From: a virus
Taxonomy: Duplodnaviria; Heunggongvirae; Uroviricota; Caudoviricetes
Direction: 5' to 3' (one strand)
IMG/VR virus record: IMGVR_UViG_3300029214_000123
Length of the DNA stretch: 21,450 nt
The translations under genes were made by a program, and so were the position numbers. Shown piece by piece: positions 124 to 21,450 of the stretch (positions are counted from its first letter, which is position 1; each line of letters opens with the position of its first letter). The notes below the pieces were generated by a model, which saw nothing but the letters and a program-made list of their open reading frames with translations, was not told the origin of the DNA and made no database searches.

Positions 124-192
124 TAAGTGCGGGTGCGTTGAGGATGCCTGACACATCAGAGGTGGCGAGGGATTTCTCCCCCGCCAGGTCTC

Positions 193-946: not shown

Positions 947-957
947 GTCTTACACCT

Positions 958-983
958 CTTGTAATTACAAATGTCATTACAAG
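958..983. promoter_or_regulatory. relBE operator/promoter palindrome (relO-like)
   Basis: cttgtaattacaaatgtcattacaag: inverted hexad repeats (TTGTAAT / ATTACAA) about 12 bp upstream of the relB start codon, the expected place for RelB-RelE autorepression. Confidence 0.7.
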
Positions 984-1276
984 TATCGCACTACAACATG
1001 CTTAGGGCAAGTCACGAAGGAAGTCAGAAAGTAGTCGTAAGAACGGTGATCACTGTCCGCTTTGTGCCAGGAGCAGCCATTGCTAAGTCCATCCTGTATT
1101 GTGCAGGTCAGCTCGTTTTTAAAGAGTCCGGCCATCATCTTACTGGTACAGACACCATATACTTTGTGACGGTCAGGCTACATATGCACAACTCAACTTA
1201 TTCATCTATTTTTTGCTTTAGCATGTCAGTGTTGCTTTCTCGTCGGCGGGTGAGCGGTGACCTGACCTGTCGATAA
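971..1276 (+). CDS. ydfV: Hypothetical prophage ORF divergent from relB (ydfV-like by position and length)
   Basis: 101-aa ORF in the position and size I recall for K-12 ydfV; no clear SD and it starts inside the rel operator, so it may not be a real protein. Confidence 0.3.
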   Translation: MSLQVSHYNMLRASHEGSQKVVVRTVITVRFVPGAAIAKSILYCAGQLVFKESGHHLTGTDTIYFVTVRLHMHNSTYSSIFCFSMSVLLSRRRVSGDLTCR

Positions 1277-1428
1277 AGGAACGTAGCACGTTTTATGCAA
1301 CACCCGCATGCGGCAGAAAATTATTGCCGAACGTTTACCCCTGTCAACAAGCTTTACTTTCTGAGGCGCGCCAGCCCGCGAGGAAAACAATCTGAACATC
1401 AAACAATTAATGACACAAGAAATACGAT

Positions 1429-1455
1429 TAAAGATTTTTTTGTGCATGCCGATAG
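1429..1455 (+). promoter_or_regulatory. FliA (sigma-28) class promoter for flxA
   Basis: TAAAGATT (1429-1436), 11-bp spacer, GCCGATAG (1448-1455): near-perfect match to the sigma-28 consensus TAAAGTTT-N11-GCCGATAA, about 24 bp upstream of the flxA ATG. Confidence 0.7.
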
Positions 1456-1478
1456 TGCTTTTTTAAAAGGAGAAATCT

Positions 1479-1814
1479 ATGNNNNNNNNNNNNNNNNNNN
1501 NNNNNNNNNNAACCGTTATTTCAAACAACTCCGCCCCGGAAGGAACATCAGAAATAGCCAAAATCACAAGACAAATTCAGGTGCTGACTGAAAAGCTTGG
1601 GAAAATCTCATCGGAAGAGGGGATGACGACACAGCAGAAAAAAGAAATGGCTGCATTGGTACAGAAGCAAATTGAAAGCCTCAGGGCTCAACTGGAGCAG
1701 TTGTTAAGGCAGCAGGCAGAGAAAAAGAATAAAGACGCGACAGTTCAGCCTGATAAAAAAGAAGAGAAAAAAGACGATACAAATACCGCTGGCACCATTG
1801 ATATTTACGTCTAA
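1479..1814 (+). CDS. flxA: FlxA (FliA-regulated prophage protein); codons 2-11 masked by an N-run
   Basis: 111-aa ORF ...TVISNNSAPEGTSEIAKITRQIQVLTEKLGK... matches FlxA as I recall it; GGAG SD before the ATG at 1479; N-run 1482-1510 inside the gene. Confidence 0.8.
   Translation: MXXXXXXXXXXTVISNNSAPEGTSEIAKITRQIQVLTEKLGKISSEEGMTTQQKKEMAALVQKQIESLRAQLEQLLRQQAEKKNKDATVQPDKKEEKKDDTNTAGTIDIYV
1482..1510. other. Run of 29 N (assembly gap or masked bases) inside flxA
   Basis: Literal n characters in the sequence. Confidence 1.
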
Positions 1815-2250
1815 GTGACAGCCGTATTGTGGCCCTCATCGGGCCACTTTTCGCCATCAGCCTTTTCTTTAAAGACATATTATCTTTGTATCATTTCTGA
1901 TAGTTAACATTACAAGATATAAGTAATGGACGCACTCCCAATTAGTCTATTTAAATCGCCACGAGTTTAACTGACAACCCATGATCAATTATGAATTGCA
2001 ACTATTTCTGTAGTCACTTTTGTGGGGACAGTCCACAAAACTGCCAACTTCCGCTTCTTGCTCTTAGCGGACATTAGCATAGGCTATTTACCATAACGCC
2101 TCATTACGCGCACCGCCCAGACTGACTCAGCGCGTTTCTGGCATATCCCCGGTAAAACAAGTAACAAACCACCCGAAAATGAACACCAGAAACGCGACTT
2201 AAGAATCTACCCTATGAATGGATATGCACTCAACCGAATCGATCTTGGTT

Positions 2251-3601
2251 TCAATCTTTTTTATCGGGATCAGGCTTCTTTTTAGGTAACTTCGGGGGCT
2301 TAACTTGCTGATGACTTTGCGTTCGGCGCGTAAGCCAGGGATGGTCAGCTTTAGGTTTAACATAGTATTTTGAGCGTAAATCAATACGGGCATTATCCAC
2401 TCGTTCATGGACACTCTTTTCATCATCCAGTGGTATAGGCTCCGGGCCATCAACATACTTTTCCCAGCCCAGCGCTTTCCCGTCATACAGAACGTTAATT
2501 TCACCGTCAAAGTTCTCGCATACAGTAACAACCGAATGCCTAAGTCGATATCCCCGGCCCTCACTGCGTACCTGAAACGCACTGCTTTTGTACTGGAAAG
2601 TGAGATTTTTAGACAGAACGCGCTTCGCCTGTAGGCTGAAGATATAACCCAGTTCCTCTTCAGAATGGTGCACATCAAGATGAGCATTATCAGTAGTACG
2701 AGGCGACGTAGCGAACCGGTTGTTATAGGCTTCAATAAAGGTCGGCAACCATGCATTTGCTGTTTCAATATCACTGATATTCTGAAGCCGCATTTCTTTG
2801 ACCAGCCTGTCCTGTAGTGTCTGATTGGCGCGCTCTACCCGCCCTTTTGCCTGCGGGCTGTTGGCATGGATTGGCTCGATGCCCAGTGTCTTTATCGCAC
2901 GAGTGAACTGGGTCAGCTCACCTTCCCGCTCTGGGTTATTTACCCTGAATATACTGTGTCTATCAGAGTAGAGAGCGAGCGGTACGCCATGATCATTAAG
3001 GTAACCCCGGAGGGTTTCCATGTAAGCCCGGGTTGTTTCAGCAGGCACAAAACGCAACGCCATCAACGCACTGGTGGCATCATCAATGAAAACGATCAGT
3101 GTACATCTGGGGCCTCGATTTTCAAACCAGTCATGAGGTGAGCCATCAATCTGGATCAGTTCACCGTAAGATGGTCGTCGCATGCGGCGTTGATATATAC
3201 GGGCAATTTTACGACGGCGTTCACGCCATACCCCCCTCTTCTATCATCCACTTTCTGAGAGTTTCAACGGATAAAGATAAACCGTGTATCTCGCGCAATT
3301 TTTCGCACGCAAACGTAGGTCCAAAATCAGCGTAACGGCCTTTGAGGAGTAAAATTACTGTTGCTCTGAATTCAGTAGAAAAGGAATTATTAGGACGCTT
3401 TCCACGTCGGTGGGAAACCAGACCAGAAGGCCCTTCATTTCTATACCGTTGCNNNNNNNNNNNNNNNNNNNNNNNNNNNNNNNNNNNNNNNNNNNNNCGT
3501 GCCGCAGCTTGTTCCTGAGTAATATGTCGATTAATTGACTCCTGAATAATCTGAAGTCGGTGGAGTTCCTTATGACTCATCGTAACAGTTTCTTTGGTCA
3601 T
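2251..3601 (-). mobile_element. IS element transposase gene: N-terminal HTH plus DDE (rve-type) catalytic core, about 450 aa; disrupted by a 1-bp frameshift in a poly-G tract and by an N-run (pseudogene or sequencing error)
   Basis: ORFs 3221..3601 (HTH-like N-terminus) and 2251..3183 (D...D...E core: IDGSPHDWF, YSDRHSIF, GRVERANQTL) are offset by +1. They fuse into one reading frame if the C6 run at 3231-3236 (G6 on the coding strand) is shortened by one base. No A6G slippery heptamer. IS boundaries and inverted repeats were not resolved; family is uncertain (single-ORF IS481/ISNCY-like). Confidence 0.7.
3453..3497. other. Run of 45 N inside the transposase gene
   Basis: Literal n characters. 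Confidence 1.
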
Positions 3602-3935
3602 GAAAAATCCCCCAGAGAATTGTCTGGGGACATTTTAGAATGGTTCAAAGGGGACATTACAGCTTGGTGTTAACAATAGCCTGCTTCTCCTTGCCTTTCG
3701 GCACGTAAGAGGCTAACCTACATGTGTCTGGCATGAAATTGGCCTCAGATTAATGTTAAGCGTCTTGCAGGACGCGTAATGTTAACTGGGGCTTTTCTCT
3801 ACCTGCCGTTGGTGTTCGTGCCCGAGGCAGATAGCCTCAAGCACCCGCAGTCATTCTACTTAACTAAGATTTCCCCGCAAACCGTTTTTGTCCAGCACAG
3901 TAAATATCCAACTAAACCAATGGAGTTCGCTGTAT

Positions 3936-4154
3936 TTACCGCCAGTATTCAATGCACATGACCGCCATGAACACCCCTAAAAAAAGGGCATTTATATATC
4001 CAAATATTAATATCAAAACATCAACTTTTTCCATATACCTTGCTGTGAAGATGATGGGCATACATGATGCGAACAACCAGAACGCAACAAACAAAAACTG
4101 CAATGCGTTTTTCATTATTCCTCCTACAATCAATGTGCAATTACATTTAAACAC
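3936..4154 (-). CDS. Hypothetical small membrane protein (72 aa)
   Basis: ORF with two hydrophobic stretches (LQFLFVAFWLFASCMPIIF, LILIFGYINALFLGVFMAVM); AT-rich surroundings, no clear SD. Confidence 0.25.
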   Translation of the reverse strand: MFKCNCTLIVGGIMKNALQFLFVAFWLFASCMPIIFTARYMEKVDVLILIFGYINALFLGVFMAVMCIEYWR

Positions 4155-5269
4155 ACCTCAATTTGGCCGGACATATAAATATCTAAACCAGAAAAAATCA
4201 CTTACATAGCGTTACAAACTCTTTAGTCTAAAGGTTCATCGTAAAACATTCCCCATACTTATCAGTCCGTTCCGCGCCAGGTAGCTCATTGCCTTATCTG
4301 GCAACCTGTAATCAGGTTTCCGCTTTTTCAGTTGGCTGGTCGTTTAACCGACATAGTTAACCCATTAATCTAGTTGCCGGATGTTGGTGGATTTTCGCGT
4401 TTTAGTTGTTCATAAAAGTGCACAGCTTTAACCAATTCTTCTGATGTAACCGGGACTGGTGAGGCAGTGAATAAGGCCTGAATTTGATAGTTCGGCCTGT
4501 CGTTACAATCCTCTTTTTTCGGTACATATTTCCAGTCACCAGACCACTACTTCCCCTGAAAGTCCGTAACGCCTTTTTTTTCACGTAGCGATATCGCCAT
4601 GCCACTGTTTTTGCTTGCCCCGCCGTTTCATGCCCTTCCTGATAATTAACCTCGCTCATTCATCGCCCCACTCATCACAATATGCTTCGACCGGAGTTTT
4701 TCCCGCTTCATAGTCATCACGCTAGGATTCGACATCAGCAGCACTTCCACCGCGTAACTCACCATAGTCCATTAATAGTTCATCCCGCTCTTCAAAACTG
4801 ATGTTATATTTAGCTGAACAAAAATCAGCCACTTTGTTCTTCCTCATCGTCTTTTATTTCGTGGTATGAGTAATTGCAGTAGTTAAAGAAAATTTCTTAT
4901 GCTCCGTCATGAATTTCATCAGGTGTTGCGTCATCGTCCACTTCGAATACATCCTCAAAATCTCCACCAGCTATTCCCGTTTCAATAATAATTTTGAACT
5001 TTCGCATTTCACTACCGCCCTTTCGGGCGGCCTCCTGATGTTCTGAGGGTGCAGAAATCCATCCGGTTAAGGATTAAGTTTTATTTACAGAACTGAATTT
5101 AATTATTCAGATATACGTATCTGTAACCTTACGAATCTACTCACTGGATGCCTCTTTCATAAAAATAATCCAGTGGGTTTTATCGTTTTTTCCCTGTTCG
5201 TTGACAGATAACAGGCTTTCTATCTGTCAGTGCCAGAATCTGGCTTACCGGTATTTGCGTTTCATTCCA

Positions 5270-5626
5270 TTAAAAAATCAGAACGCCGTGCGGCCTCAAC
5301 ACCCGAAAAGCTTCTTTAAATCTCTGTCGCAAATCATCACGCCAGGCATCTTTATTCAGCCGTCCATATTTCTTTCCCATCCAGGCGTTATCACCAACAC
5401 GCTCAAGATGCGGAGGGTCTAATACAACCATCGAAAAAGATGCGTCTGCAAATGATAATGCACGAAAATCTGCGATAATGTCAGGGCTGATAATCAAGCG
5501 TCTCCCATTGCGTAATGTGTATCCTTCTTTTCTGATATCGCTAAATATCGCCCGTTCGTCAGACTTATCGAACCAGAACATGCGGCTGCCACAGCACATA
5601 TCAAGAATGGTTGCCGGTGCACTCAC
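5270..5626 (-). CDS. Prophage DNA methyltransferase-like protein (YfdM-like), possibly truncated
   Basis: 118-aa ORF with SAM-binding-like MCCGS motif and DPPH catalytic-like motif (VVLDPPHLE); short for a complete methyltransferase. Confidence 0.55.
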   Translation of the reverse strand: MSAPATILDMCCGSRMFWFDKSDERAIFSDIRKEGYTLRNGRRLIISPDIIADFRALSFADASFSMVVLDPPHLERVGDNAWMGKKYGRLNKDAWRDDLRQRFKEAFRVLRPHGVLIF

Positions 5627-6045
5627 TGCGCCACGTCCTGAAAATTACCCTGATAGAAAGCCAGTATGCGCTGCATAACTTCGCTCTTCCGGCACTCGCG
5701 ACAGATTATGTTTAGGCGACTGTCGTAGCGACGTATTTCTCCGTCAGGTGATGACCAGATAAGGTCCGGATCAACCACAGCAGGTTTCTTCACCTTTGCC
5801 CTCGAGAGTTTTTTGCGGGCGTTTTGCCAGTCCTTACGCGCCTGTTCAGAGGGGAATAACCCGTAGCCGGAGTTGTATACATCGCCACTGGCTACCAGCT
5901 CTCTGGCAAGAACGCTCATCAGATATCTAGTCGCACCTGTTTTAGCTTCCAGTTGCCGTAACGTCTCACGGCCGCTCTGGCGCACGAGTTCCACCACCTG
6001 CCATTTAATTTTTTCCCGCTCTTCTTGTGTAAAAACTTTTGCCAC
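5623..6045 (-). CDS. Hypothetical prophage protein (140 aa) in the leftward early/replication operon
   Basis: ORF co-oriented with and overlapping (ATGA-type) the downstream methyltransferase-like gene; basic C-terminus. Confidence 0.5.
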   Translation of the reverse strand: MAKVFTQEEREKIKWQVVELVRQSGRETLRQLEAKTGATRYLMSVLARELVASGDVYNSGYGLFPSEQARKDWQNARKKLSRAKVKKPAVVDPDLIWSSPDGEIRRYDSRLNIICRECRKSEVMQRILAFYQGNFQDVAQ

Positions 6046-6085
6046 AAGTCCCCCTTAAAATTACCTCATGACCTGAAATCAACAC

Positions 6086-7051
6086 TTATCCTCTGAAACC
6101 AGGCGGAATTTCTGTATCCGGTTCAGAAATATGATTAACACAACGCTGTACAGGTGAACGTCCCAGGCGGATGACCAGTTCGTCCCATTTTTCGCGGAGC
6201 TTTGACGGGCTCATGATGTTTTTTACCCAGAATGGATCTCGCTGAACCCGACCAAACATTTCGCAAATTTGTCTGTGGCTTCTGCCATCCAGCATCCGCA
6301 TTGTGCGCACGTCATTGGCCCAGGCAGTCCAGTTAGGCTCTTTTGGTCGCATGATCTCGCCATCATCACTGGCTGCCTGTTCGTAGAGACCCACGATCCG
6401 CCCCCAGATCCACTGCGCACACGCCAAATCCTCCCTGCTACCCCACTGGCGTTTTTTCGCACTAAACACAACCGCGTCGGAGTTCCGGGTTAAAAAATCC
6501 TGTTCAGTCGTCTGCGGGTCCGGTTGCGAAGCTTCCGGACGAAAAGTGTTTTTATTCTCTGTAGTAATCTCTGTTGTATTCTCTGTAAGATCATCAGGCC
6601 ATTTTGACCCGATGACATTGGGTCGTTTTGAATCAATGGAGCGTTTCATTTTGACCTCTTCCATCGTGTCATTTTGACCTGATGGAGCGGCGCATTTTGA
6701 ACCGATGGATTCGCTCAATTTGCCACCATCTAAAAGCTCGCTCCCATAGTTGATCGTGTAGAAATTGGTCATATCGCGCTTTGATTTATTGAGCTTTTCA
6801 CAACGCAAAAGCCCCAGCGTTTTCAGACTTGCAAACGCGCGCTTTAACGTTGACTCTGACCAGAATGGGAACTGTTCCAGCCATTGTTCCGTTGTGTTAT
6901 AAATCCAGCGAACACCATCACATTCCATGCCGGAGTTGGTATCTCTCAACCAGTAGTGCAGTTGTTGCAAAACAATGGCTTCGTTTAAGCCAATTTTCAT
7001 TGCCAGCTGCGTGTTTATAACCAGTGGGCGTTCAGCAAAAAGAAGGCTCAT
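6086..7051 (-). CDS. Putative phage replication initiation / replisome-organizer protein (lambda O-like position)
   Basis: Long ORF (track 6086..7105); internal ATG at 7051-7049 (MSLLFAERPL...) is the more likely start. Sits downstream of the cro-like dicC in the leftward operon where lambdoid replication genes are found. Functional call is by position and general resemblance only. Confidence 0.5.
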   Translation of the reverse strand: MSLLFAERPLVINTQLAMKIGLNEAIVLQQLHYWLRDTNSGMECDGVRWIYNTTEQWLEQFPFWSESTLKRAFASLKTLGLLRCEKLNKSKRDMTNFYTINYGSELLDGGKLSESIGSKCAAPSGQNDTMEEVKMKRSIDSKRPNVIGSKWPDDLTENTTEITTENKNTFRPEASQPDPQTTEQDFLTRNSDAVVFSAKKRQWGSREDLACAQWIWGRIVGLYEQAASDDGEIMRPKEPNWTAWANDVRTMRMLDGRSHRQICEMFGRVQRDPFWVKNIMSPSKLREKWDELVIRLGRSPVQRCVNHISEPDTEIPPGFRG

Positions 7052-7553
7052 AATTCCATCCAGCTTTTTGTTGGTATTGCTGTCGATACGCAAGCTTGAA
7101 AGCAATTGCTTTTTCTATAAGTTCGTCAGTTTCACGATCCACTACGGCAGGATCAGCAAAAAGCAGTCCGGACTCCACCACATCGCCATATTCTTTGTTT
7201 AACCCGGCGATCATGCACGTGATGCTTTTTCCGTCAGTAATTTCACGATACAACCTGAAATCACTAATCCGGATAGCCTCCATAATCGCAGGCACTAGCG
7301 CCGTGAACTTTTCACGCTTATCCCTGGTGTCGATAGCCTTCCAGCGTTCGAATATCTTCACTCGATTAACACCAAGCGCTCGCTGATCAACCGCGCCACC
7401 TTCATCTGTGACACGCTGAACATCGATGTTCGGGCGCTCTTTCAAAGCCCAGAATGCTTCAGTGATTAATATCGTCGCCTGCTCCTGTGTCATTCCTGGT
7501 CGACATATCCAGGCATCCAGAGCCTCACGAGCCTGTTCAGGAGTGATTTTCAT
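7032..7553 (-). CDS. Hypothetical prophage protein (173 aa) immediately downstream of dicC
   Basis: ORF overlaps the dicC 3' end by 17 nt and the next gene by about 20 nt (compact operon organisation); function unknown. Confidence 0.45.
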   Translation of the reverse strand: MKITPEQAREALDAWICRPGMTQEQATILITEAFWALKERPNIDVQRVTDEGGAVDQRALGVNRVKIFERWKAIDTRDKREKFTALVPAIMEAIRISDFRLYREITDGKSITCMIAGLNKEYGDVVESGLLFADPAVVDRETDELIEKAIAFKLAYRQQYQQKAGWNYEPSFC

Positions 7554-7764
7554 TGTTCAACCGCCCCGCCCGCTTCGTCTTACGATATTCATCATAAACT
7601 TTGGGATCATACTGAAGCTCCCCGCCAGATGCCTCCTGTAGACGCATCGCGCGACCTTCAGGAACCAGTATCCCCCAAGCAGCAACACTTGCCAGCCTCA
7701 CTCCTGCGGCATTGGCAAGCTTTGTTTTGCTGCCAAAAAAAGTAATTGCGTCAACTTTAAGCAT
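7537..7764 (-). CDS. dicC: DicC, Cro-like repressor of division inhibition
   Basis: ORF ...FGSKTKLANAAGVRLASVAAWGILVPEGRAMRLQEASGGELQYDPKVYDEYRKTKRAGRLNNENHS matches DicC as I recall it; the track ORF begins at a TTG (7767), the first ATG is at 7764; divergent from dicA. Confidence 0.85.
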   Translation of the reverse strand: MLKVDAITFFGSKTKLANAAGVRLASVAAWGILVPEGRAMRLQEASGGELQYDPKVYDEYRKTKRAGRLNNENHS

Positions 7765-7778
7765 CAAATCCCCCTCTT

Positions 7779-7794
7779 GTTAGAGTTTTCTAAC
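7779..7794. promoter_or_regulatory. Operator-like palindrome in the dicC-dicA divergent promoter region
   Basis: gTTAGAgttttTCTAAc inverted repeat between the dicC and dicA start codons. Confidence 0.55.
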
Positions 7795-7844
7795 ATTATT
7801 GTGCGCGGGATACCTAAGTCAAGAAAAATTAGAATTACCTAACT

Positions 7845-8252
7845 ATGGATACAAGAACCCTGGGCCAGCGAGTTCTGGCGCGACGAAAAGAATTACGCTT
7901 AACACAACGAGAAGCCGCGCGCCTCGCTGGAGTTGCTCACGTCACAATTTCACAATGGGAAAGAGACGAAACCCAGCCAGTCGGAAAACGATTGTTTGCT
8001 TTAGCGGATGCTCTGAAGTGCTCACCTACATGGCTAATGTTTGGTGACGAAGACAAGGCACCAGTGCCTGCACAAGAACTTCATGTGGAAACAGAGCTAA
8101 CTCCCAACCACAAAGAATTGATCGAATTATTCGATGCTCTTCCATCTTCCGAGCAGGAAGCCTTGCTGTCTGAAATGCGCGCAAGAGTAGAAAACTTCAA
8201 CAAACTCTTCGAAGAAATGCTTAAAGCGCGTAAAAATAAATCAATAAAATAA
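7845..8252 (+). CDS. dicA: DicA, XRE-family HTH repressor (CI-like)
   Basis: 135-aa ORF with HTH (LTQREAARLAGVAHVTISQWERDETQP) and C-terminus ...EMRARVENFNKLFEEMLKARKN matching DicA as I recall it. Confidence 0.9.
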   Translation: MDTRTLGQRVLARRKELRLTQREAARLAGVAHVTISQWERDETQPVGKRLFALADALKCSPTWLMFGDEDKAPVPAQELHVETELTPNHKELIELFDALPSSEQEALLSEMRARVENFNKLFEEMLKARKNKSIK

Positions 8253-8287
8253 CATTCTTTTCAAGTGATTAGTTGCGCCCACCCTTT

Positions 8288-8307
8288 TTGTTAGATCAAT
8301 CTAACAA
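8288..8307. promoter_or_regulatory. Second DicA-type operator palindrome upstream of ydfA
   Basis: ttGTTAGATcaATCTAACaa: same TTAGA/TCTAA half-sites as the 7779-7794 palindrome, placed at the start of the rightward ydfABC-dicF operon. Confidence 0.55.
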
Positions 8308-8420
8308 AAAACACTTGCCTCTCATGTTAGGTTATTCTAAATTATTTTCCATCAAGACACCGCACGGTGTTCTCAGCAAACAGTTCCGCTACCCCGGCGT
8401 TAAGGGGAAATGAGGTCAGC

Positions 8421-8576
8421 ATGGATACTATCGATCTTGGCAACAACGAATCTCTGGTGTACGGCGTGTTTCCAAACCAGGACGGCACGTTCACCGCAAT
8501 GACGTATACCAAAAGCAAAACGTTTAAAACCGAATCTGGAGCGCGTCGCTGGCTGGAAAGAAATTCAGGTGGGTGA
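8421..8576 (+). CDS. ydfA: YdfA (small prophage protein, 51 aa)
   Basis: MDTIDLGNNESLVYGVFPNQDGTFTAMTYTKSKTFKTESGARRWLERNSGG from the ATG at 8421 (track ORF starts upstream at a GTG); SD-like aggggaaatgagg upstream. Confidence 0.8.
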   Translation: MDTIDLGNNESLVYGVFPNQDGTFTAMTYTKSKTFKTESGARRWLERNSGG

Positions 8577-8577
8577 T

Positions 8578-8706
8578 ATGGATTTCGACACAATCATGGA
8601 AAAGGCTTACGAAGAATACTTCGAAGGCCTTGCCGAAGGCGAAGAAGCTCTCAGCTTCAGCGAATTTAAACAGGCGCTTGCCAGTTCGGCAAAATCTAAC
8701 GGCTGA
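8578..8706 (+). CDS. ydfB: YdfB (42 aa)
   Basis: Hand translation MDFDTIMEKAYEEYFEGLAEGEEALSFSEFKQALASSAKSNG; starts 2 nt after the ydfA stop; below the ORF track threshold. Confidence 0.75.
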   Translation: MDFDTIMEKAYEEYFEGLAEGEEALSFSEFKQALASSAKSNG

Positions 8707-8735
8707 TAAGCGAAACAGCACCGCAAGGAATCAGT

Positions 8736-8954
8736 ATGCAGAAACGAGAACCCGTTATCATCGCGCCAGACTATACCGATGATGAACTTTATGAGTGGAT
8801 GCACCAGAAAATTAATGCAGCGCAGGATCTGAAATGGGCTAATGAAGCCAGGGCTAAGCAGGCTGAAAATCTGTTCTCTCTGGAGCAGGATATCACCAAT
8901 CTGGAAAAAGCAGCGGCATTAAGCATTGCCAGAATGATTACATACCCGCGTTAA
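8736..8954 (+). CDS. ydfC: YdfC (72 aa)
   Basis: ORF MQKREPVIIAPDYTDDELYEWMHQKINAAQ... in the conserved ydfABC order. Confidence 0.8.
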   Translation: MQKREPVIIAPDYTDDELYEWMHQKINAAQDLKWANEARAKQAENLFSLEQDITNLEKAAALSIARMITYPR

Positions 8955-9294
8955 TAGCTAACCAACGAAGCTAAGGTTGGTAATTAAGGAGTTCTCCACG
9001 GGTGAGGTGGAGTGCGTGCGCCGGACACGGGTGAGCATCCGGCACTGACAGTTTACTGAAAGGATATTTCCCTGAAAAGTCAGACCATAACGCGAAAGCG
9101 CACGGCGAGGTAGCTGGTTCATAGATAGCCTGTCGTTAAATTTTCGTCGACCGTGCGCTTCCGGTTGTGGCAACCCGCGAAATGGCGCGGCGGTAAGTAT
9201 GGCGGGGTTATTCCTTCCCCGTTGAGGACACCGGGTTGTCAGGTTGACCATACGCTTAAGTGACAACCCCGCTGCAACGCCCTCTGTTATCAAT

Positions 9295-9352
9295 TTTCTG
9301 GTGACGTTTGGCGGTATCAGTTTTACTCCGTGACTGCTCTGCCGCCCTTTTT
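9295..9352 (+). ncRNA. dicF: DicF small RNA (antisense inhibitor of ftsZ translation) with intrinsic terminator
   Basis: tttctggtgacgtttggcggtatcagttttactccgtgactgctctgccgccc followed by ttttt matches DicF as I recall it; GC hairpin plus T-run at the 3' end. Confidence 0.85.
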
Positions 9353-9376
9353 AAAGTGAATTTTGTGATGCGGTGA

Positions 9377-9649
9377 ATGCGGCTAAGCGCACGCGGAACA
9401 GTTAAAACCAAAAACAGTGTTATGGGTGGATTCTCTGTATCCGAAGAGCAGTTAATTGCGCTGAAAGGAATAAAAAAAGGTACGTTAAAAAAGGCCCGGG
9501 AAAAATCGTTTATGGAAGGAAGGGAATATAAGCATGTCGCTCATGACGGTATGCCATGGGATAACAGTCCATGCTTTTACAACCTGGAAGAAATTGATCG
9601 CTGGATTGAGCGCCAGGCATCAGCAAGACCAAGACGTCATCTTACTTGA
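9377..9649 (+). CDS. Putative excisionase (lambda Xis-like); start codon uncertain
   Basis: ORF immediately upstream of int; segment EGREYKHVAHDGMPWD resembles the lambda Xis DGREYLFHESAVKVD region. No clear SD at any candidate start (9377, 9422, 9512). K-12 has dicB at this position, and no DicB-like protein is present here. Confidence 0.45.
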   Translation: MRLSARGTVKTKNSVMGGFSVSEEQLIALKGIKKGTLKKAREKSFMEGREYKHVAHDGMPWDNSPCFYNLEEIDRWIERQASARPRRHLT

Positions 9650-9683
9650 CTAAAAGCCACACTAACTAATGAGAGAAGTTGAA

Positions 9684-10964
9684 ATGAAATATCCGACAGG
9701 CGTGGAAAACCATGGAGGGAAATTACGTATCTGGTTTGTTTATAAAGGCGTAAGAGTCAGGGAAAACCTGGGGGTTCCTGACACAGCAAAAAACAGGCGC
9801 GTTGCAGGTGAGCTACGCGCCTCTGTTTGTTACGCAATAAAAACTGGTGTTTTCGACTATGCAAAACAGTTTCCCTCCTCACGCAATCTGGAAAAATTTG
9901 GTGAGACTCGACAAGATTTAACCATAAAAGAACTGGCTGAAAAATTTCTGGCACTGAAAGAAACTGAAGTCGCAAAAACATCACTCAACACATACCGTGC
10001 CGTCATCAAAAATATCCTGAGCATAATCGGTGAAAAAAATCTTGCCTCATCGATTAATAAAGAAAAATTACTGGAGGTTCGTAAAGAGCTACTGACTGGA
10101 TACCAGATCCCCAAAAGTAACTATATTGTTACACAACCAGGGAGATCGGCTGTAACTGTAAATAATTACATGACAAATCTTAACGCCGTGTTCCAGTTTG
10201 GTGTTGATAACGGTTACCTGGCAGATAACCCGTTTAAGGGGATCTCGCCATTAAAGGAATCAAGAACCATTCCGGATCCTCTTTCGCGGGAGGAATTCAT
10301 CCGTCTTATCGATGCGTGCAGAAATCAGCAAGCCAAAAATTTATGGTGTGTTTCTGTTTATACTGGCGTTCGCCCTGGTGAGCTGTGTGCACTTGGATGG
10401 GAGGACATAGATCTGAAAAATGGAACAATGATGATCAGGAGAAATTTAGCAAAAGACCGTTTCACGGTACCAAAAACACAGGCGGGAACCAATCGGGTCA
10501 TTCATCTTATTAAGCCAGCAATCGACGCTCTCCGGAGTCAGATGACATTAACGAGACTGAGCAAAGAGCATATCATTGATGTTCACCTCAGAGAGTATGG
10601 CAGAACAGAAAAACATAAATGCACCTTTGTTTTTCAACCTGAAGTGTCAGCGAGAGTAAAAAATTATGGTGACCATTTTACCGTTGACTCAATAAGGCAG
10701 ATGTGGGACGCAGCGATAAAACGTGCCGGACTCCGCCATCGAAAATCATATCAGTCGAGACATACTTATGCCTGCTGGTCGCTGACAGCTGGTGCTAATC
10801 CGGCATTTATAGCAAACCAGATGGGCCATGCAGATGCGCAAATGGTATTTCAGGTATACGGAAAATGGATGTCTGAAAACAATAATGCACAGGTAGCTTT
10901 GTTAAATACACAGTTAAGCGAGTTTGCCCCAACCATGCCCCATAACGAAGCAATGAAAAATTAA
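9684..10964 (+). CDS. Phage integrase (tyrosine recombinase), apparently intact
   Basis: 426-aa reading from the ATG at 9684 (track ORF 9669) with a C-terminal catalytic region carrying conserved R...HxxR...Y residues (...RHTYACW..., ...VYGKWM); last prophage gene before the chromosomal rspB. Confidence 0.85.
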   Translation: MKYPTGVENHGGKLRIWFVYKGVRVRENLGVPDTAKNRRVAGELRASVCYAIKTGVFDYAKQFPSSRNLEKFGETRQDLTIKELAEKFLALKETEVAKTSLNTYRAVIKNILSIIGEKNLASSINKEKLLEVRKELLTGYQIPKSNYIVTQPGRSAVTVNNYMTNLNAVFQFGVDNGYLADNPFKGISPLKESRTIPDPLSREEFIRLIDACRNQQAKNLWCVSVYTGVRPGELCALGWEDIDLKNGTMMIRRNLAKDRFTVPKTQAGTNRVIHLIKPAIDALRSQMTLTRLSKEHIIDVHLREYGRTEKHKCTFVFQPEVSARVKNYGDHFTVDSIRQMWDAAIKRAGLRHRKSYQSRHTYACWSLTAGANPAFIANQMGHADAQMVFQVYGKWMSENNNAQVALLNTQLSEFAPTMPHNEAMKN

Positions 10965-11151
10965 TTTAATATTTATCAAATAGTTGACACGTATGACTCT
11001 TGAAATCCATAAATTCAAGCGCAGTGCCCAGCCATCCCGATACTGCTGCTTTCACCAAATCCTTAGTGCTTCTTTCGTGTTTTTCTATTGTCATAATGGT
11101 TATCTCTAAAAAAGAGGTAAGATGCGTACTACTTACTCGCCGTTATTGGTA

Positions 11152-16324: not shown

Positions 16325-17734
16325 ATGTCCAAAAATGACCGAATGGTGGGCATCAGCCGCAGAACACTCGTTAAATCAACCGCGATAGGTTCTCTGGCGC
16401 TGGCTGCAGGCGGTTTTTCTTTACCGTTCACCCTGCGCAGTGCAGCGGCAGCGGTACAACAGGCCAGCGAAAAAGTGATCTGGGGTGCCTGTTCCGTCAA
16501 CTGTGGTAGCCGCTGTGCACTTCGTCTACATGTTAAAGATAATGAAGTCACCTGGGTGGAAACTGACAACACCGGCAGCGACGAGTATGGCAATCATCAA
16601 GTACGCGCCTGTTTGCGTGGTCGATCCATCCGCCGGCGTATTAATCATCCCGATCGCTTGAATTACCCAATGAAACGCGTGGGTACACGCGGTGAAGGCA
16701 AATTCGAACGGATTAGCTGGGATGAAGCCCTGGATACTATCGCCAGTAGCCTGAAAAAAACCGTCGAACAATATGGCAATGAGGCTGTATATATTCAGTA
16801 CTCTTCGGGGATTGTTGGCGGCAATATGACCCGCTCTTCGCCATCAGCCTCGGCGGTCAAACGCCTGATGAACTGCTACGGCGGTTCACTCAATCAGTAT
16901 GGCTCCTACAGCACCGCGCAAATTTCCTGTGCCATGCCCTACACCTACGGCAGTAATGATGGCAACAGCACCACGGATATTGAAAACAGCAAGCTGGTCG
17001 TGATGTTTGGTAACAACCCGGCAGAAACCCGCATGAGCGGCGGTGGCATCACTTATCTTCTTGAAAAAGCGCGCGAGAAATCGAACGCCAAAATGATTGT
17101 TATCGATCCGCGATATACCGATACGGCTGCCGGTCGTGAAGACGAATGGCTCCCTATTCGCCCGGGCACCGATGCCGCGCTGGTTGCGGGTATTGCCTGG
17201 GTATTGATTAACGAAAATCTCGTTGATCAACCTTTTCTCGATAAATACTGCGTCGGCTATGACGAAAAAACCTTACCCGCAGATGCACCCAAAAATGGTC
17301 ACTATAAAGCCTATATTCTTGGTGAAGGTGACGATAAAACAGCGAAAACGCCGCAGTGGGCTTCGCAAATTACCGGTATCCCGGAGGACCGTATCATCAA
17401 ACTGGCGCGTGAAATTGGCACAGCAAAACCCGCTTATATCTGCCAGGGCTGGGGGCCGCAACGCCAGGCAAACGGCGAACTGACTGCACGCGCTATTGCT
17501 ATGTTACCTATTTTGACGGGCAATGTCGGCATCAGCGGCGGAAATAGTGGCGCGCGTGAATCGACCTATACCATTACCATAGAACGCCTGCCGGTGCTGG
17601 ATAATCCGGTCAAAACGTCAATCTCCTGCTTCAGCTGGACAGATGCTATCGATCATGGTCCGCAAATGACGGCAATCCGCGACGGCGTCCGCGGCAAAGA
17701 TAAACTGGATGTGCCCATTAAGTTCATCTGGAAC
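16325..17734 (+). pseudogene. ynfE: ynfE 5' fragment (Tat-exported DMSO/selenate reductase-family molybdoenzyme catalytic subunit), cut after codon ~470 by foreign DNA
   Basis: Tat signal (SRRTLVKSTAIGSLALAAG), 4Fe-4S Cys motif (CSVNCGSRCALR), YnfE/DmsA-like sequence up to ...DVPIKFIWN. The remaining ORF tail (FKDLKRTLSRPEVLH, stop at 17782) does not continue as YnfE/DmsA, and the full protein should be roughly 800 aa. Confidence 0.85.
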
Positions 17735-17790
17735 TTCAAGGACTTGAAGCGGACCCTTAGTAGGCCTGAGGTCCTGCATTGAGTCAAGGA

Positions 17791-17824
17791 CTTTGTGTCA
17801 GGCTTTGTGTCAGCCTTGTGTCAT
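17791..17824. repeat. Three tandem copies of an ~11-bp repeat (ctttgtgtcag variants) in the foreign-segment terminal region
   Basis: ctttgtgtcagg / ctttgtgtcagc / cttgtgtcat in direct tandem; followed by a tagacgg ... tagacgg direct repeat (17825-17844). Confidence 0.6.
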
Positions 17825-17976
17825 TAGACGGGATGTCTAGACGGCTGGTCAGGACCCCCGGTGGCCTCGGTCTGGACTTGAGGCGGGGCTATGGGGGGAA
17901 GTCTGCTGGCTTAATGTATTAGATGGTCATTCACATTTTTCTGTCAGAAACCATCGGTCCCACTGTGAGTCCAAAC

Positions 17977-18132
17977 CTAAGGACCTAGAAGTCCACCCAC
18001 AGCCTTAGACAGAGTGTCGAACACATCCACACCGAGTCGACCAGAGAGGACCATATAGAGACCCACAGAGAGGAACACGAGTTTATAGACCAGAGTCAGG
18101 AGGGACCTTAGGTCTGCGGAAGTCATAGACAT
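17977..18132 (-). CDS. Small (51 aa) membrane protein, holin-like or phage small membrane protein; missed by the ORF track (<60 aa)
   Basis: Hand translation MSMTSADLRSLLTLVYKLVFLSVGLYMVLSGRLGVDVFDTLSKAVGGLLGP; strong SD GAAGGAGG 5 nt upstream of the ATG at 18132; one predicted TM helix; same strand as the neighbouring phage-like genes. Confidence 0.55.
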   Translation of the reverse strand: MSMTSADLRSLLTLVYKLVFLSVGLYMVLSGRLGVDVFDTLSKAVGGLLGP

Positions 18133-18276
18133 TGGGTCCTCCTTCGCCTGTATACTACCATACCAGTAATAAGGCCCAGACCATTGGTCCAGACCATAGT
18201 TAGTTAATCACAGTGATAGCCCACCACCTGAAGTCCTGCTGATATTCAGTCCAGACTTACCTCTTACCCATTGGTC

Positions 18277-19266
18277 TTACGCTTCGGTCTTGGTGAACTT
18301 CAGGCGTTTGACTACAGGCAGGACGGCAGTAGCTGAGCCAGTGCCCATCTTGACGGTCGTAGCAGCTTCAGCGACAACGAACACTTTACCGAGGATTTCC
18401 AGAGAGTGAGACTGAGAGTCACCATCACGGGACAGGACCACCGTAATGTTTTCGCCATCGTGGCGGAAGCAACCGAAGCTCAGAGCCGTAAAACGCTTAG
18501 CCATCATGAACACGCCACGGTCTTCACCGTTGTAATACGCAATATCAGTCCCCAGCATATCGACGATAGCGTCTTCACCACCGAAGCCCTGCTTAGCAGC
18601 CAGACGGGAGAGAGCCTTGAGGTGTGACTCATGGGCGATGATACCGTAATCAGTAACCTCAGAACCGAAAGAAGATTCGGTGTTGTCATACAGAGCGTCC
18701 ATGATAGTGTCTGCCTTAGCGGTCAGGCTGCCAGTCAGGACCGGAAGCTCTACGGTCTTCAACAGTTTGGAGGACTCCAGAACGTCAACCATGCGAGCGT
18801 TGATGGTACGGACCACATTCTCACAGATGTTCATAGCGTCCTGCTGAAGTGTGCCCTGAGTGAATCCGGTGGATGACTTGGCGTCCCAGAGCTTGGTCTG
18901 CTCAGAGATGAGAATAGCCTGCTCGATTGGTTCGACCACGATTTCTTGTCCAGACGGAACGGTCACGACTTCAGGTCGCTTACCACCACGGACAGGAACG
19001 ACCACAGAGCGATCAGCCAGAGTGTGAGCAATGATTGGAGTAGGCAGGCTATTGCGGGTCGGCAGGACTTCTACAGGGAACGGGATGTTATCTTGAGCGT
19101 CTTTAAGTACACCGTTCAGCATAGCCTTAACAGTCTTAGCTAACTGGAGGGCATAGACCTGAGGGTCGGCGTTAGTCGGAAGGCCCTCATTAACCTGAAG
19201 GTTGTCGTTGTCGGTGATATGAACAGGCTCAATGCCAAACTGGAAAGCGTTTTTAGTCATATTCAT
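18277..19266 (-). CDS. Phage-like abundant structural protein, tentatively a major capsid protein (329 aa)
   Basis: Long ORF with strongly biased high-expression codon usage (CTG, GGT, CGT, GCT, ATC, GAC). Translation initiation region CAAGGAGATTAATTATA-ATG resembles the T7 gene 10 RBS (AAGGAGATATACAT-ATG). 9-bp hairpin immediately upstream. Few Cys, Ala/Val/Thr/Gly-rich. The capsid assignment is inference, not a recognised homolog. Confidence 0.45.
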   Translation of the reverse strand: MNMTKNAFQFGIEPVHITDNDNLQVNEGLPTNADPQVYALQLAKTVKAMLNGVLKDAQDNIPFPVEVLPTRNSLPTPIIAHTLADRSVVVPVRGGKRPEVVTVPSGQEIVVEPIEQAILISEQTKLWDAKSSTGFTQGTLQQDAMNICENVVRTINARMVDVLESSKLLKTVELPVLTGSLTAKADTIMDALYDNTESSFGSEVTDYGIIAHESHLKALSRLAAKQGFGGEDAIVDMLGTDIAYYNGEDRGVFMMAKRFTALSFGCFRHDGENITVVLSRDGDSQSHSLEILGKVFVVAEAATTVKMGTGSATAVLPVVKRLKFTKTEA

Positions 19267-19298
19267 TATAATTAATCTCCTTGAGTCAAATACTTGAA

Positions 19299-19321
19299 GT
19301 CCCTAACAGGCAGTCAGGGAC
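19299..19321 (-). promoter_or_regulatory. Stable RNA hairpin in the leader of the capsid-like gene (candidate RNase III / mRNA-stability element)
   Basis: On the minus strand GUCCCUGAC-UGCCU-GUUAGGGAC: 9-bp stem with one G-U pair; no U-tract after it, so it is unlikely to be an intrinsic terminator. Confidence 0.4.
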
Positions 19322-19349
19322 CGTGTGTTCTCAGATGAGGGACGCTTGC

Positions 19350-19841
19350 TTACAGGCTGTCCATCCAGTTACCGCCTGACTCAATGTCAGCGACGATAGC
19401 GGCACGGGAGCGACCAGCGGAATGGGTAGCACTGCGGAGGTTCTCACCATAGGTCCGGCGTTCAGCTTTGACCTGTTCGCGGCGCTGTAGCTCTTTCTGC
19501 CACTCTGCATCAGTCATGTTCTCTTCACGCATACGCTCAGCCTGAATGCGCTGCTCTTTAGCAATACGCTCAGCTTCGGCTCGCTTGTTCTGCTGGCGGC
19601 GACCATAGGCGGTCATCAGGTCATTACTGAAGAAGTTGCCAATGGTCACGCCAGCTTCAGCCAGAGCTTCCAGTAACTCCATCGCCTCGCGGCTGGTGGA
19701 CGGTAAGCCTGACAGGTAGCCCGGAATCAGGGTCTTAATCGCCAGAGACAGCGGATAGGACTGACCGTCCAGACTCACAGTATTTTCATAGGGATTGATG
19801 TCGGTGACTGATAGTTTCCAGTCGTTGTTGTTGAATAACAT
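19350..19841 (-). CDS. Phage-like protein (163 aa) with a charged coiled-coil C-terminal half, scaffolding-like
   Basis: ORF with SD AGGAGTACTACCTT-ATG; C-terminal half RRQQNKRAEAERIAKEQRIQAERMREENMTDAEWQKELQRREQVKAERR is Arg/Glu/Gln-rich helical; immediately precedes the capsid-like gene. The scaffold role is inference. Confidence 0.4.
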   Translation of the reverse strand: MLFNNNDWKLSVTDINPYENTVSLDGQSYPLSLAIKTLIPGYLSGLPSTSREAMELLEALAEAGVTIGNFFSNDLMTAYGRRQQNKRAEAERIAKEQRIQAERMREENMTDAEWQKELQRREQVKAERRTYGENLRSATHSAGRSRAAIVADIESGGNWMDSL

Positions 19842-20055
19842 AAGGTAGTACTCCTATTGAGAAGGTGAGAACTATCGGTATCGCAGACACAGTTATGCCT
19901 ACGGGTCTCCCCGCATCGGTCATTCTCAAAAGGTTTTAAAATTAGGTATTAAGTAGGTGAGCTGCTAACGGTTAGGCGCTAGCTTGCTAGCTGACGGCAG
20001 TTTCATAGCGACCAGTTGCGCTATCAGCTCGTCTCGGGATTGGTGCTGGCGGGTC

Positions 20056-20157
20056 TCATCTTNNNNNNNNNNGACCAAGCTCTCTGAGGAGGACTTCAGT
20101 CCGGTAGCCACGGTAACGGAGAGTCATGCGACCCTCAGGTGTGCGCGGGTCAATCAT
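20056..20157 (-). CDS. Possible small basic protein (~33 aa) translationally coupled to the upstream 237-aa gene; spans an N-run
   Basis: ATG at 20157-20155 is preceded by GGAGGG (8 nt upstream) lying in the last codons of the upstream gene; translation MIDPRTPEGRMTLRYRGYRTEVLLRELG... The length depends on the true size of the 10-N gap. Confidence 0.2.
   Translation of the reverse strand: MIDPRTPEGRMTLRYRGYRTEVLLRELGXXXXR
20063..20072. other. Run of 10 N inside the foreign segment
   Basis: Literal n characters. Confidence 1.
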
Positions 20158-20158: not shown

Positions 20159-20872
20159 TTAGAGTCCCTCCAGCTTGCCGGATTGGGCCTGCTTCAGGAG
20201 GTGCTCTTGCTTCTGCTGGTCGGTGCCAGTGAAGGCAATAAGGATGCCTCGCATCTTGTCAACCATCTCAGGCTTACCGAAGACCTCCAGTCCCTTAGCA
20301 TTGAACCGGAAGTTATAACCACCTGCTGAGAACTTCTGGTCTGACGGCTTAATGATACGAAAGCAGTCGGAATACTTCGGATTTACAGACCACTCGTTAC
20401 TGATTGGATTCTTACGAAAGAGACCACGATGCTGAAGAAGTGCGGTCATTAGCTTCTGAGCGGGTAGACCATAGGTTTTGCAGTAGTCGCCCCAAGTCAC
20501 GCCTCGACGGTTAGCGGACTGAATTGATGCTCGCTTCTTCTGGTCTTCCAGTAACTGCTTGTCCTTCTCAATTCGTCGGATGTATTCAAGGACTTTGCGA
20601 CGCACAGCTTTAGACTCACGCATACCGACTAGTAACAATTGGTCTCCGGTCAGCGTGATTGATTCCATCTGACGACCACCGCCTGTAGGTGTAATCAGAA
20701 CGGTCGCAAAAGTTTTGCAATCGTCCAGCTCATCGCGGACACGGGCTAAGAATTGGTCATTACGGACCGGAGCCTCGCCAGCTTCTGAACGAGCAGGATT
20801 GATAACAGTCGTCAGAAACTCATAGGAAGGCATAGAGAATTCATTGTTAAAGATGACTACTTGTTGAGACAT
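20159..20872 (-). CDS. Phage-like protein of unknown function (237 aa); possibly regulatory/antirepressor-like (weak)
   Basis: Long ORF with SD AAAAGGAGTACAACGAT-ATG, the same AGGAGTAC-type initiation region as the 163-aa gene; codon usage like the neighbouring genes. The segment ESITLTGDQLLLVGMRESKAVRRKVLEYI vaguely recalls Rha/antirepressor-type proteins, which I cannot verify. Confidence 0.5.
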   Translation of the reverse strand: MSQQVVIFNNEFSMPSYEFLTTVINPARSEAGEAPVRNDQFLARVRDELDDCKTFATVLITPTGGGRQMESITLTGDQLLLVGMRESKAVRRKVLEYIRRIEKDKQLLEDQKKRASIQSANRRGVTWGDYCKTYGLPAQKLMTALLQHRGLFRKNPISNEWSVNPKYSDCFRIIKPSDQKFSAGGYNFRFNAKGLEVFGKPEMVDKMRGILIAFTGTDQQKQEHLLKQAQSGKLEGL

Positions 20873-21450
20873 ATCGTTGTACTCCTTTTGTTATGTCTCC
20901 TGAAGTCACACCCTGAAAGCCTACTCAAGCCCCCAACGATAGGGAGACTCACAGGCAACAGGAGACATACAGAAAGACTTGAGGATTGATGAGGTCGTGT
21001 GAAGACCAGAGATGACCATAGCGGCTAATAAAAGGAAATTTTCCTCTTTTGAGGACTGCTCAGTTTTGAGCGCGTTAAGTTCTTCGACCATAGAGACGAA
21101 GGTTGCAGGCCGCATGTCAGGACGAGCTGTAAGGACCCCAGATGGTGAGCGGTGATAGACTTAAGCCAATGTAGTGAGTAGACGAGCTACTAACTGAGAT
21201 GACTGAAGAACGCTAACGAGCTGGAGGTCGATACACGAGGTCTGACAGGGGCGGTCTTCCTACCAGTGATAGTTAAGTCTCTACACTGGTCATACATACC
21301 CAACCTCAAGCAACGACCCAATGTATACAGGGTCCCGATGCTTTGAGCTGGAGACTGACGGAGCTATCGTCGACCCCATGGTTGAGGAAGACACATAGAA
21401 GGAATGAGGTCTGACTTAAGTCTGGACTATAGGTCTTATATTAATCTTCA

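Follow-up and report, generated by a model that had tools for sequence, protein, structure and literature searches.

A predicted HK97-fold shell protein gene in an Escherichia coli chromosomal island with T7-like promoters: a candidate satellite of T7-like phages

The phage satellite P4 and the Staphylococcus aureus pathogenicity islands (SaPIs) remodel the capsids of their helper phages, and the Ccm protein of SaPIbov5 is a homolog of its helper's capsid protein, with which it co-assembles. Phage-inducible chromosomal islands that form capsids (cf-PICIs, e.g. EcCI2) carry a full set of head and packaging genes, steal only tails and parasitise temperate phages. PICMIs (minimalist phage-inducible chromosomal islands) and PLEs (elements resembling phage-inducible chromosomal islands) are small integrative islands that need a virulent helper; PICMIs occur in Vibrionaceae and are not described as encoding capsid genes, and PLEs, from Vibrio hosts, hijack the coat proteins of ICP1 and remodel them into small capsids. 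For neither is the use of promoters of a helper's single-subunit RNA polymerase (RNAP) reported. T7 and related phages belong to the best studied of all, and therapy cocktails and biotechnology make wide use of them; to our knowledge, no satellite or dedicated chromosomal parasite of these phages is known. Here we describe a 329-aa open reading frame (ORF) and the small chromosomal island that carries it, both found in a stretch of 21,450 nucleotides (IMG/VR record IMGVR_UViG_3300029214_000123, hereafter the window). We compare the island with the satellite families by their published descriptions.

The first-pass annotation of the window had assigned the 329-aa ORF to a T7-supergroup phage genome. 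The gene is instead located in an integrase-bearing island of ~6.6 kb that is inserted in ynfE. The surrounding DNA is an E. coli-type chromosome, in which a Qin-like prophage remnant is followed by rspBA, ynfA-D and speG, and the ynfE ORF is truncated at an 11-bp attachment (att) core, CATCTGGAACT (17725–17735, unstranded), which forms the junction of the ynfE 5′ fragment and the island. In L001 (handles of this form denote fetched loci), which holds a complete copy, the insertion measures ~6.6 kb, the 11-mer is repeated at its far end and the 3′ part of ynfE resumes there. In the window the island spans from ~17736 to past the last position (21450), i.e. the window stops inside it. The TIGER study had already included ynfE among genes split by integrative elements, without a description of what this element contains (PMC7192596). 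Other copies of the island adjoin tRNA-Gly near actS, and the copy in L010 is integrated at another site and bounded by 16-bp direct repeats. The island thus has the general make-up of a satellite: an integrase, att repeats and an incomplete set of phage genes. Next to the att core we also noted tandem CTGACACAAAG repeats and a GCATTGAGTCAA motif (window ~17790–17830 and ~17760–17790); the GCATTGAGTCAA motif recurs near the other island end in L001, and both are probably arm-type binding sites of the integrase.

Gene order is kept across the island family. It reads integrase, variable cargo, one or two clusters of phage-RNAP promoters, a regulator of the Ant, Rha or KilA type, a 63-aa gene, a 163-aa DUF6971-like gene, the predicted HK97-fold gene, a gp7.3-like gene, a 51-aa membrane ORF and the att site.

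The 329-aa protein (18277–19266, minus strand, with its ATG start at 19266) has no family match in Pfam, PHROGs, NCBIfam or PADLOC and no match among PDB sequences, and no relative of its gene was found in 50,697 phage records by DNA or protein comparison, tblastn included. Its near homologs occur only in Enterobacteriaceae. An exhaustive profile search of 1.8 billion representatives returned 64 relatives, ~35 of them full length, with identities down to ~20%. The AlphaFold model built from an alignment of 39 sequences is confident (pLDDT, the predicted local distance difference test, 81.6; predicted template modelling score, pTM, 0.78); an earlier model from 14 close homologs was discarded (pLDDT 39.5). 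Foldseek matched the confident model to 203 PDB entries at E ≤ 1e-3, and every significant structural match is an HK97-fold shell protein, SaPIbov5 Ccm among them. A search of BFVD gave 201 matches, capsid proteins without exception. By fold comparison, the model contains the elements that define the HK97 superfamily, namely the N-arm and helix, the long E-loop hairpin, the spine helix, the P-domain sheet and the A-domain. We conclude that the ORF is predicted to encode an HK97-fold shell protein. One member of the family bears an appended Big_2 Ig-like domain, which commonly decorates the surface proteins of virions.

The first-pass annotation had proposed a capsid-type protein, either a diverged gp10 or a novel one, and had named an unrelated fold as the outcome that would overturn this; the predicted fold is that of a capsid protein, and the novel protein proves to be the correct half of the proposal. 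A diverged gp10 finds no place in the data. BLASTP of the 329-aa protein against T7 gp10 detects no similarity (E = 1.9), and in hhalign the family profile of 39 sequences aligns with the T7 and Ro45lw capsid proteins at a probability of 0.15%; as said above, no capsid family of Pfam or PHROGs matches either. Moreover, T7 gene 10 stands after the portal gene, between scaffold gene 9 and the tail genes, and portal and tail genes were not detected in the island. Judged by sequence comparison, the protein appears to represent a capsid lineage outside the Pfam and PHROG families.

A link to T7-like phages emerged from the variable cargo. The HNH endonuclease encoded in L001 has its nearest phage relatives only in ~39–40 kb T7-like coliphages of the genus Kayfunavirus (47–50% identity, E = 1e-41 to 1e-46), where the related gene stands after the large terminase gene. 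Because this cargo is closest to Kayfunavirus, we derived the Kayfunavirus promoter empirically and scanned the fetched loci with it. The position weight matrix (PWM) was built from 11 promoters of Kayfunavirus Ro45lw (consensus ACTAAACTATCACTATAGGGAGA), whose own sites score 31–35.8 bits; the scan covered ~570 kb, and 13 island copies were mapped for promoter position. Island copies have one to three sites each at 30–35.6 bits, i.e. near-perfect promoters of the Kayfunavirus type, and in L025 the match to the phi10 promoter of Ro45lw extends over 25 of 25 nucleotides. All sites of at least 15 bits in the ~570 kb lie on the strand of the capsid-like gene, and every site of at least 18 bits in the mapped copies lies upstream of the operon. 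Per 21 kb of shuffled sequence, 0.4 matches reached 12 bits or more. Just before the regulator gene the sites fall into two clusters, one ~1.9–2.0 kb and the other, in copies without extra inserted DNA, ~2.3–2.6 kb upstream of the capsid-like gene. A scan with consensus sequences of the T7, T3, SP6, K11, K1F and gh-1 promoters remained at chance level, and the sites surfaced only with the Ro45lw PWM. Sigma-70-like promoters, of which 2.6 were expected, were not found in the window's 3.85 kb of island sequence.

More than one polymerase specificity is represented. Kayfunavirus-type sites are often paired with a second promoter type, ACCCTCACTATAGGGA, which occurs in multiple copies on a single strand of 39.7–39.9 kb viral contigs belonging to the GW1/SH4 group of T7-like phages (Cronobacter GW1, Citrobacter SH4 and SH5, E. 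coli Ro103C3lw and Enterobacter EP1 phages). Among the distant islands, L020 has two tandem promoters, one with ACGACTCACTATAGGGAGA, which is the T7 promoter core, and L016 has four copies of a variant of its own, TTAATTCCTACCACTATAGGGAGAC; all of these share the strand of the genes, and the expected number is 0.085 per 10 kb.

The promoter in the window itself is a degenerate Kayfunavirus-type site, AGACTTAACTATCACTGGTAGGAAGAC (21254–21280, minus strand; PWM 20.4 bits), with a 1-nt insertion that makes it read CACTGGTAGG in place of CACTGTAGG. It occupies exactly the position of cluster 2 (−2014 relative to the capsid-like gene), where other copies score 26.8–35.6 bits. Cluster 1 would by its position fall beyond the window end, and every mapped copy has one or more stronger sites upstream. 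The E. coli copy nearest to that of the window, in strain 30EVA1 and also in ynfE, has a 34.1-bit promoter at −2440, and its regulator region is mosaic relative to the window. The degenerate promoter, together with a broken gp7.3-like gene (see below), suggests that the window copy may be partly decayed, with the capsid-like gene and its partner intact; an intact promoter, should this copy have one, would be located past 21450. The 1-nt-insertion variant (CACTGGTAGG or CACTGTTAGG instead of CACTGTAGG) was also seen in other islands with the ynfE-type integrase, at L001 23827–23853 and L014 8941–8967; this variant represents either promoter decay or adaptation to another polymerase.

Two further genes connect the family with T7. 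Directly downstream of the 329-aa ORF is a remnant of a gp7.3-like gene (18208–18271, minus strand) which has suffered a 176-nt internal deletion between GGTAAG repeats and reads MGKR-stop. The intact gene of 79 or 80 aa, in L001 and L010, matches PHROG 1320 (E = 1.8e-11 and 2.2e-10) and T7 gp7.3 by BLASTP (34% identity over 56 aa, E = 4e-6). T7 gp7.3 is a virion protein required for infectivity. The distant island L016 (~10 kb) encodes a domain homologous to T7 gp0.4 (BLASTP, 37% over 41 aa, E = 1e-8), which in T7 is an inhibitor of FtsZ. A precomputed label, Phage_T7_GP04, on this L016 gene was not reproduced by hmmscan, and the homology is supported by BLASTP; the region at 4806–5240 and its neighbours comprise the gp0.4-like domain, a ParE-like gene, an endonuclease VII-like gene and an HNH gene. 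The T7-supergroup connection that had first been noticed in the window therefore survives in the promoters upstream of the operon in family copies and in the gp7.3 homolog downstream in intact ones, and fails as an assignment to a T7-supergroup phage genome.

The gene directly upstream of the capsid-like gene encodes a 163-aa protein (19350–19841, minus strand) whose globular domain at the N terminus is followed by a charged helical segment and a tail at the C terminus. A gene of this type occupies the same position in every island, including the distant ones. The window protein has no direct match to the Pfam model of DUF6971 (PF22318), but its family profile aligns with DUF6971-type members in hhalign (probability 98.9%, E = 1.7e-17). 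One upstream neighbour in a distant island is a clear DUF6971 member (115 bits; cut-off 27), and two others match more weakly. Since the upstream proteins align across distant islands, the conserved core of the family is a two-gene module, DUF6971-like and then HK97-fold, accompanied by an integrase and a phage-type regulator. We propose that the 163-aa protein is a scaffold or partner of the shell protein. Identity with T7 gp9 or gp14 was considered and rejected: Pfam T7_gp14 matches only weakly (E = 0.011, below the cut-off) and BLASTP detects no similarity. Some RefSeq copies in E. coli are named 'peptidase M16 family protein' or 'toprim domain-containing protein' by the Prokaryotic Genome Annotation Pipeline (PGAP); these names look spurious, because the window protein has no Pfam or NCBIfam support for either.

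Both genes have the signals of strong translation. As the first-pass annotation had pointed out, the 329-aa ORF stands behind a T7 gene-10-like initiation region. It starts at CAAGGAGATTAATTATA-ATG, in which the Shine-Dalgarno sequence AAGGAG (19277–19282, minus strand, read from 19282 to 19277) is followed by a 10-nt A/T-rich spacer; the corresponding region of T7 gene 10 is AAGAAGGAGATATACATATG. The string AGGAGAT is invariant in 7 island copies. A conserved leader hairpin with a 10-bp stem and a 5-nt loop (19298–19322, minus strand) is formed by the arms GGTCCCTGAC (19322–19313) and GTTAGGGACT (19307–19298), whose 10 pairs include two G-U pairs, and is preceded by a conserved ACACAC motif (19323–19330). 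The 9-bp hairpin noticed at the outset (19299–19321) is real and is the inner part of this stem. The 96-nt leader alone does not fold unusually well compared with shuffles (z = −1.46), but the hairpin is kept in 7 diverged island copies, in which all 10 pairs are predicted with one compensatory and several compatible changes. The succession of stop codon, ACACAC, hairpin and strong Shine-Dalgarno sequence is also found in distant family members. The initiation region of one of them, L003, is AGGAGATATACAC, and that of L005, AACTTTAAGGAGA, is identical to the T7 gene 9/10 initiation region.

The codon adaptation index (CAI, with the Sharp & Li weights) of the 329-aa gene is 0.457, the highest in the window, followed by 0.424 for the 163-aa gene; host and prophage genes range from 0.22 to 0.37. 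With the effective number of codons (Nc) as a reference-free second measure, the values are 42.1 and 36.8, and 47–58 for the other genes, so that the 329-aa gene is the second most biased, behind its upstream partner. The earlier statement that its codon usage is the most biased in the window thus stands by CAI and not by Nc. The capsid and scaffold genes of T7 and Ro45lw have Nc values of 37.6–46.2, a range comparable to that of the island pair. On re-analysis, then, the expression signals were again detected, and in translation signals as well as codon bias the 329-aa gene is similar to the genes for T7-group capsids and scaffolds.

The capsid-like gene and its upstream neighbour are present in 310 of 5426 complete E. 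coli genomes (~6%), always on the chromosome, at 77–97% identity and in at most two copies per genome. Carriers include O26 and O103 enterohaemorrhagic strains; individual island-positive strains are E. coli 30EVA1, WP4-S18-ESBL-08 and O26:H11 FWSEC0001 and Shigella flexneri SFBU1023. Copies of 92–95% identity occur in Shigella, Leclercia, Citrobacter and Buttiauxella. The ratio dN/dS is 0.07–0.20 for the 329-aa gene, compared with eight other copies, and 0.06–0.36 for the 163-aa gene; both are under strong purifying selection. One record with the island, L002 (NZ_CP126871.1, Enterobacter hormaechei pEh5_2, 58.7 kb), is typed as a plasmid, and its island is flanked by the core chromosomal genes lysS, prfB, recJ, xerD and cydAB; the record looks like a chromosomal segment, not a plasmid.

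On balance we lean, if by a small degree, towards reading the island as a satellite, i.e. a molecular parasite, of T7-like phages: the helper RNAP would switch it on, and it would make a shell of its own. This leaning applies to the statement as a whole, and the layers that concern fold and context are much more secure than the one that concerns packaging. Under such a life style the operon would be silent in the uninfected cell. On infection by a T7-like phage (of the Kayfunavirus or GW1/SH4 type, or of the T7 type in other lineages) the phage RNAP would transcribe the operon, and the T7-style leader, strong Shine-Dalgarno sequence and optimised codons would have the 163-aa protein and the shell protein made in massive amounts, as a counterpart to the gp9 scaffold and gp10 capsid of T7. 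The two proteins might then assemble into a small capsid-like shell, and the island could spread using this shell with the portal, tail and terminase of the helper, interfering with the helper meanwhile. Replication may be primed by the phage RNAP at the tandem promoters, by analogy with the primary origin of T7, where replication is promoter-primed. We infer helper-RNAP-dependent expression, a scaffold role of the 163-aa protein, shell assembly, excision, replication, packaging and transfer from the features described above. Four of these favour a satellite life style: an integrative element moves between genera and between att sites without conjugation genes, it carries virion-type genes, its members have exchanged genes with T7-like phages, and they are wired to more than one helper RNAP specificity. 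In a more specific form, the islands would be the first satellites of T7-like phages, outsourcing transcription and perhaps replication to the helper RNAP, widening their helper range through promoter arrays and assembling, on helper portal and tail, a small capsid of their own out of a private HK97 lineage and a DUF6971 scaffold; T=3 or T=4 would suit ~6.6 kb. This detailed version is possible, though we hold it only tentatively.

Several observations weigh against a satellite. In scans of the island proteins with Pfam, PHROGs, NCBIfam and PADLOC, no portal, terminase, protease, pac-like or replication genes were found, and outside its promoters the island resembles neither the genome ends of Ro45lw nor any phage DNA. 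Virome-derived contigs yielded no copy, all IMG/VR matches being integrated copies in isolate genomes, and island-sized metagenome contigs contained no circular or excised form. The distant islands L003–L005, L007 and L017 have no recognisable T7-type promoter core. In the window, the sole promoter-like site is degenerate and the gp7.3-like gene is broken. Finally, the structure of the 329-aa protein is equally close to encapsulins and to phage capsids. Two loci had been considered as circular or excised forms and were rejected, since L009 is a chromosomal fragment and L010 is the integrated copy between 16-bp repeats mentioned above.

Some of these points would suit a pure anti-phage defence island, which is unlikely in our view but deserves the most serious hearing among the alternatives. 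Here the phage RNAP would trigger the operon, and the HK97-fold and DUF6971-like proteins would form decoy or poison shells that co-assemble with, or sequester, the portal, scaffold and terminase of the infecting phage, the island being neither packaged nor transferred. Phage-RNAP promoters would serve as an infection-triggered switch, the missing packaging and replication functions and virome copies would be expected, the variable cargo slot by the integrase (HNH, DUF4145) is of the kind found in defence hotspots, and SaPIbov5 Ccm, a structural match, is a capsid homolog that interferes with helper assembly. However, no defence model of PADLOC is matched save a homing endonuclease, and near-identical copies in several genera and at several att sites imply efficient horizontal transfer of an element without conjugation genes. 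A virion protein of the gp7.3 type and a dedicated scaffold-like partner suggest, moreover, that particles are built and not only blocked.

A decaying remnant of a temperate T7-like prophage, whose capsid gene, promoters and gp7.3-like gene would be functionless leftovers, is improbable. T7-type promoters and small genes do stand beside an integrase, the window copy has lost most of its gp7.3-like gene and has a degenerate nearest promoter, and some copies contain insertion sequences (IS) or a fragmented integrase. Yet copies in different genera, copies at different att sites and very distant members all keep the compact gene order and the size, both genes are under strong purifying selection, no sequence relation links the shell protein to the capsid proteins of the T7 group, and fragments of other T7 structural or replication genes are not present.

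We give still less weight to an encapsulin-like nanocompartment that would enclose the DUF6971-like protein as cargo for a host function unrelated to phages. Encapsulins are the best structural matches of the 329-aa protein and are similar in size, but the protein matches no encapsulin family of Pfam or NCBIfam, the upstream partner has no enzyme domain and no other recognisable enzyme cargo exists, and the gene is always found in an island that has an integrase, regulators of phage type, T7-like promoters and genes derived from T7. Last, the literal reading of the ORF as the major capsid gene of a resident T7-supergroup phage or prophage, for which its T7-style Shine-Dalgarno sequence, hairpin and codon bias had spoken, is refuted by the context, i.e. 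by the E. coli chromosome around a ~6.6 kb element without other phage structural or replication genes, by the failure to match any of the phage records and by a protein unrelated to gp10.

The remaining genes of the island are small or variable. The first gene of the operon encodes a 237-aa Ant/KilA-type regulator-like protein (20159–20872, minus strand) that matches the anti-repressor family PHROG 10324 (E = 1.8e-31); in other copies its slot is taken by Rha, KilA-N or Bro-N-type genes. It is followed by a conserved 63-aa ORF (19965–20157, minus strand), which has no family match and which a masked N-run breaks up in the window. The operon ends with a 51-aa ORF that has a predicted membrane helix (17977–18132, minus strand); it has no family match and is unannotated in RefSeq copies, and it is 82–100% conserved and keeps its position in L001, L010, L021 and L025. 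Between it and the gp7.3-like remnant, a hairpin 3′ of the capsid-like and gp7.3-like genes (18173–18195, minus strand; −16.2 kcal/mol, found by pattern scan) is a weak terminator candidate without the U-run of the T-phi terminators of T7 and Ro45lw. Rfam gave nothing meaningful in the island. The cargo slot between integrase and promoters holds an HNH homing-type endonuclease, a DUF4145 gene or a 122-aa gene; it was seen at 24240–24974 in L001 and just after the integrase in L011–L013, L020, L029, L031 and L033, and it resembles the defence hotspots of other satellites.

A 24-nt motif occurs twice in the window, as GTTAGTAGCTCGTCTACTCACTAC (21171–21194, minus strand) and as GTTAGCAGCTCACCTACTTAATAC (19946–19969, minus strand). 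The first copy is the same, letter for letter, in islands with only 43% identity in the capsid-like protein. The motif is also present at L003 11427–11450, L004 3877–3900 and L005 11807–11830, with unrelated flanks, on the opposite strand and near the island end; the L005 variant has a compensatory change in a small internal stem (AGTAG..CTACT to AGTTG..CAACT). We rejected a phage-promoter role for the 24-mer, which has no more than an 8-mer in common with the T7 promoter, is on the opposite strand in L003–L005 and was not found in phage contigs. It could be a protein-binding site, an origin or a packaging site.

Outside the island, the Qin-like prophage remnant beside rspB lies within window positions 1–11000. 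It includes an integrase (9669–10964), a cI-like helix-turn-helix gene (7845–8252) and replication or YdaT-like genes (5600–7550). An IS-type transposase is at 2251–3601. Masked N-runs appear as X in the ORFs at 1479–1814 and 3221–3601, and another N-run is near 20063–20072.

Literature searches, which were incomplete so that a description elsewhere is possible, returned nothing on a T7-associated satellite, on chromosomal islands with T7-like promoters, on DUF6971 or on these proteins. If the proposed wiring is correct, an island switched on by the RNA polymerase of the invading phage would represent a new induction principle for both kinds of element, and would be a likely determinant of host range and of therapy failure for T7-like phages. 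The module would also be a natural, compact two-gene HK97 shell system, and it provides a function-linked context for DUF6971 and for a capsid lineage that has no Pfam or PHROG family.

In its build, the operon follows the design of the T7 gene 9/gene 10 module. Both have a phage-RNAP promoter upstream, a leader hairpin and an epsilon-like A/T-rich region with a strong Shine-Dalgarno sequence, and in both a scaffold gene (or, in the island, its proposed counterpart) precedes the capsid gene, the pair being the two most codon-optimised genes. In contrast to T7, the island proteins are not sequence-homologous to gp9 and gp10, and the promoters lie ~2–2.6 kb upstream, before the regulator gene, and not directly before the capsid gene. 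From encapsulins the island protein is set apart by the lack of family membership and enzyme cargo and by its setting in a phage-wired mobile island.

Among the satellites, cf-PICIs are larger and encode capsid, protease/scaffold, portal, connectors and small terminase, while only the shell protein of this set was detected in the island by the Pfam, PHROG and NCBIfam scans; shell protein and small partner are all that ~6.6 kb provide, and they are wired through RNAP promoters to virulent T7-like phages. PICMIs are similarly minimal in size, but they are islands without capsid genes in Vibrionaceae, whereas the island has a predicted HK97-fold gene and Enterobacteriaceae hosts. P4, SaPIs and PLEs act on the coat proteins of their helpers, and SaPIbov5 Ccm is related to its helper's capsid protein, whereas the 329-aa protein has no detectable sequence relation to T7-group capsids. 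The island would, on our reading, work like a phage satellite, but it fits none of the families described so far.

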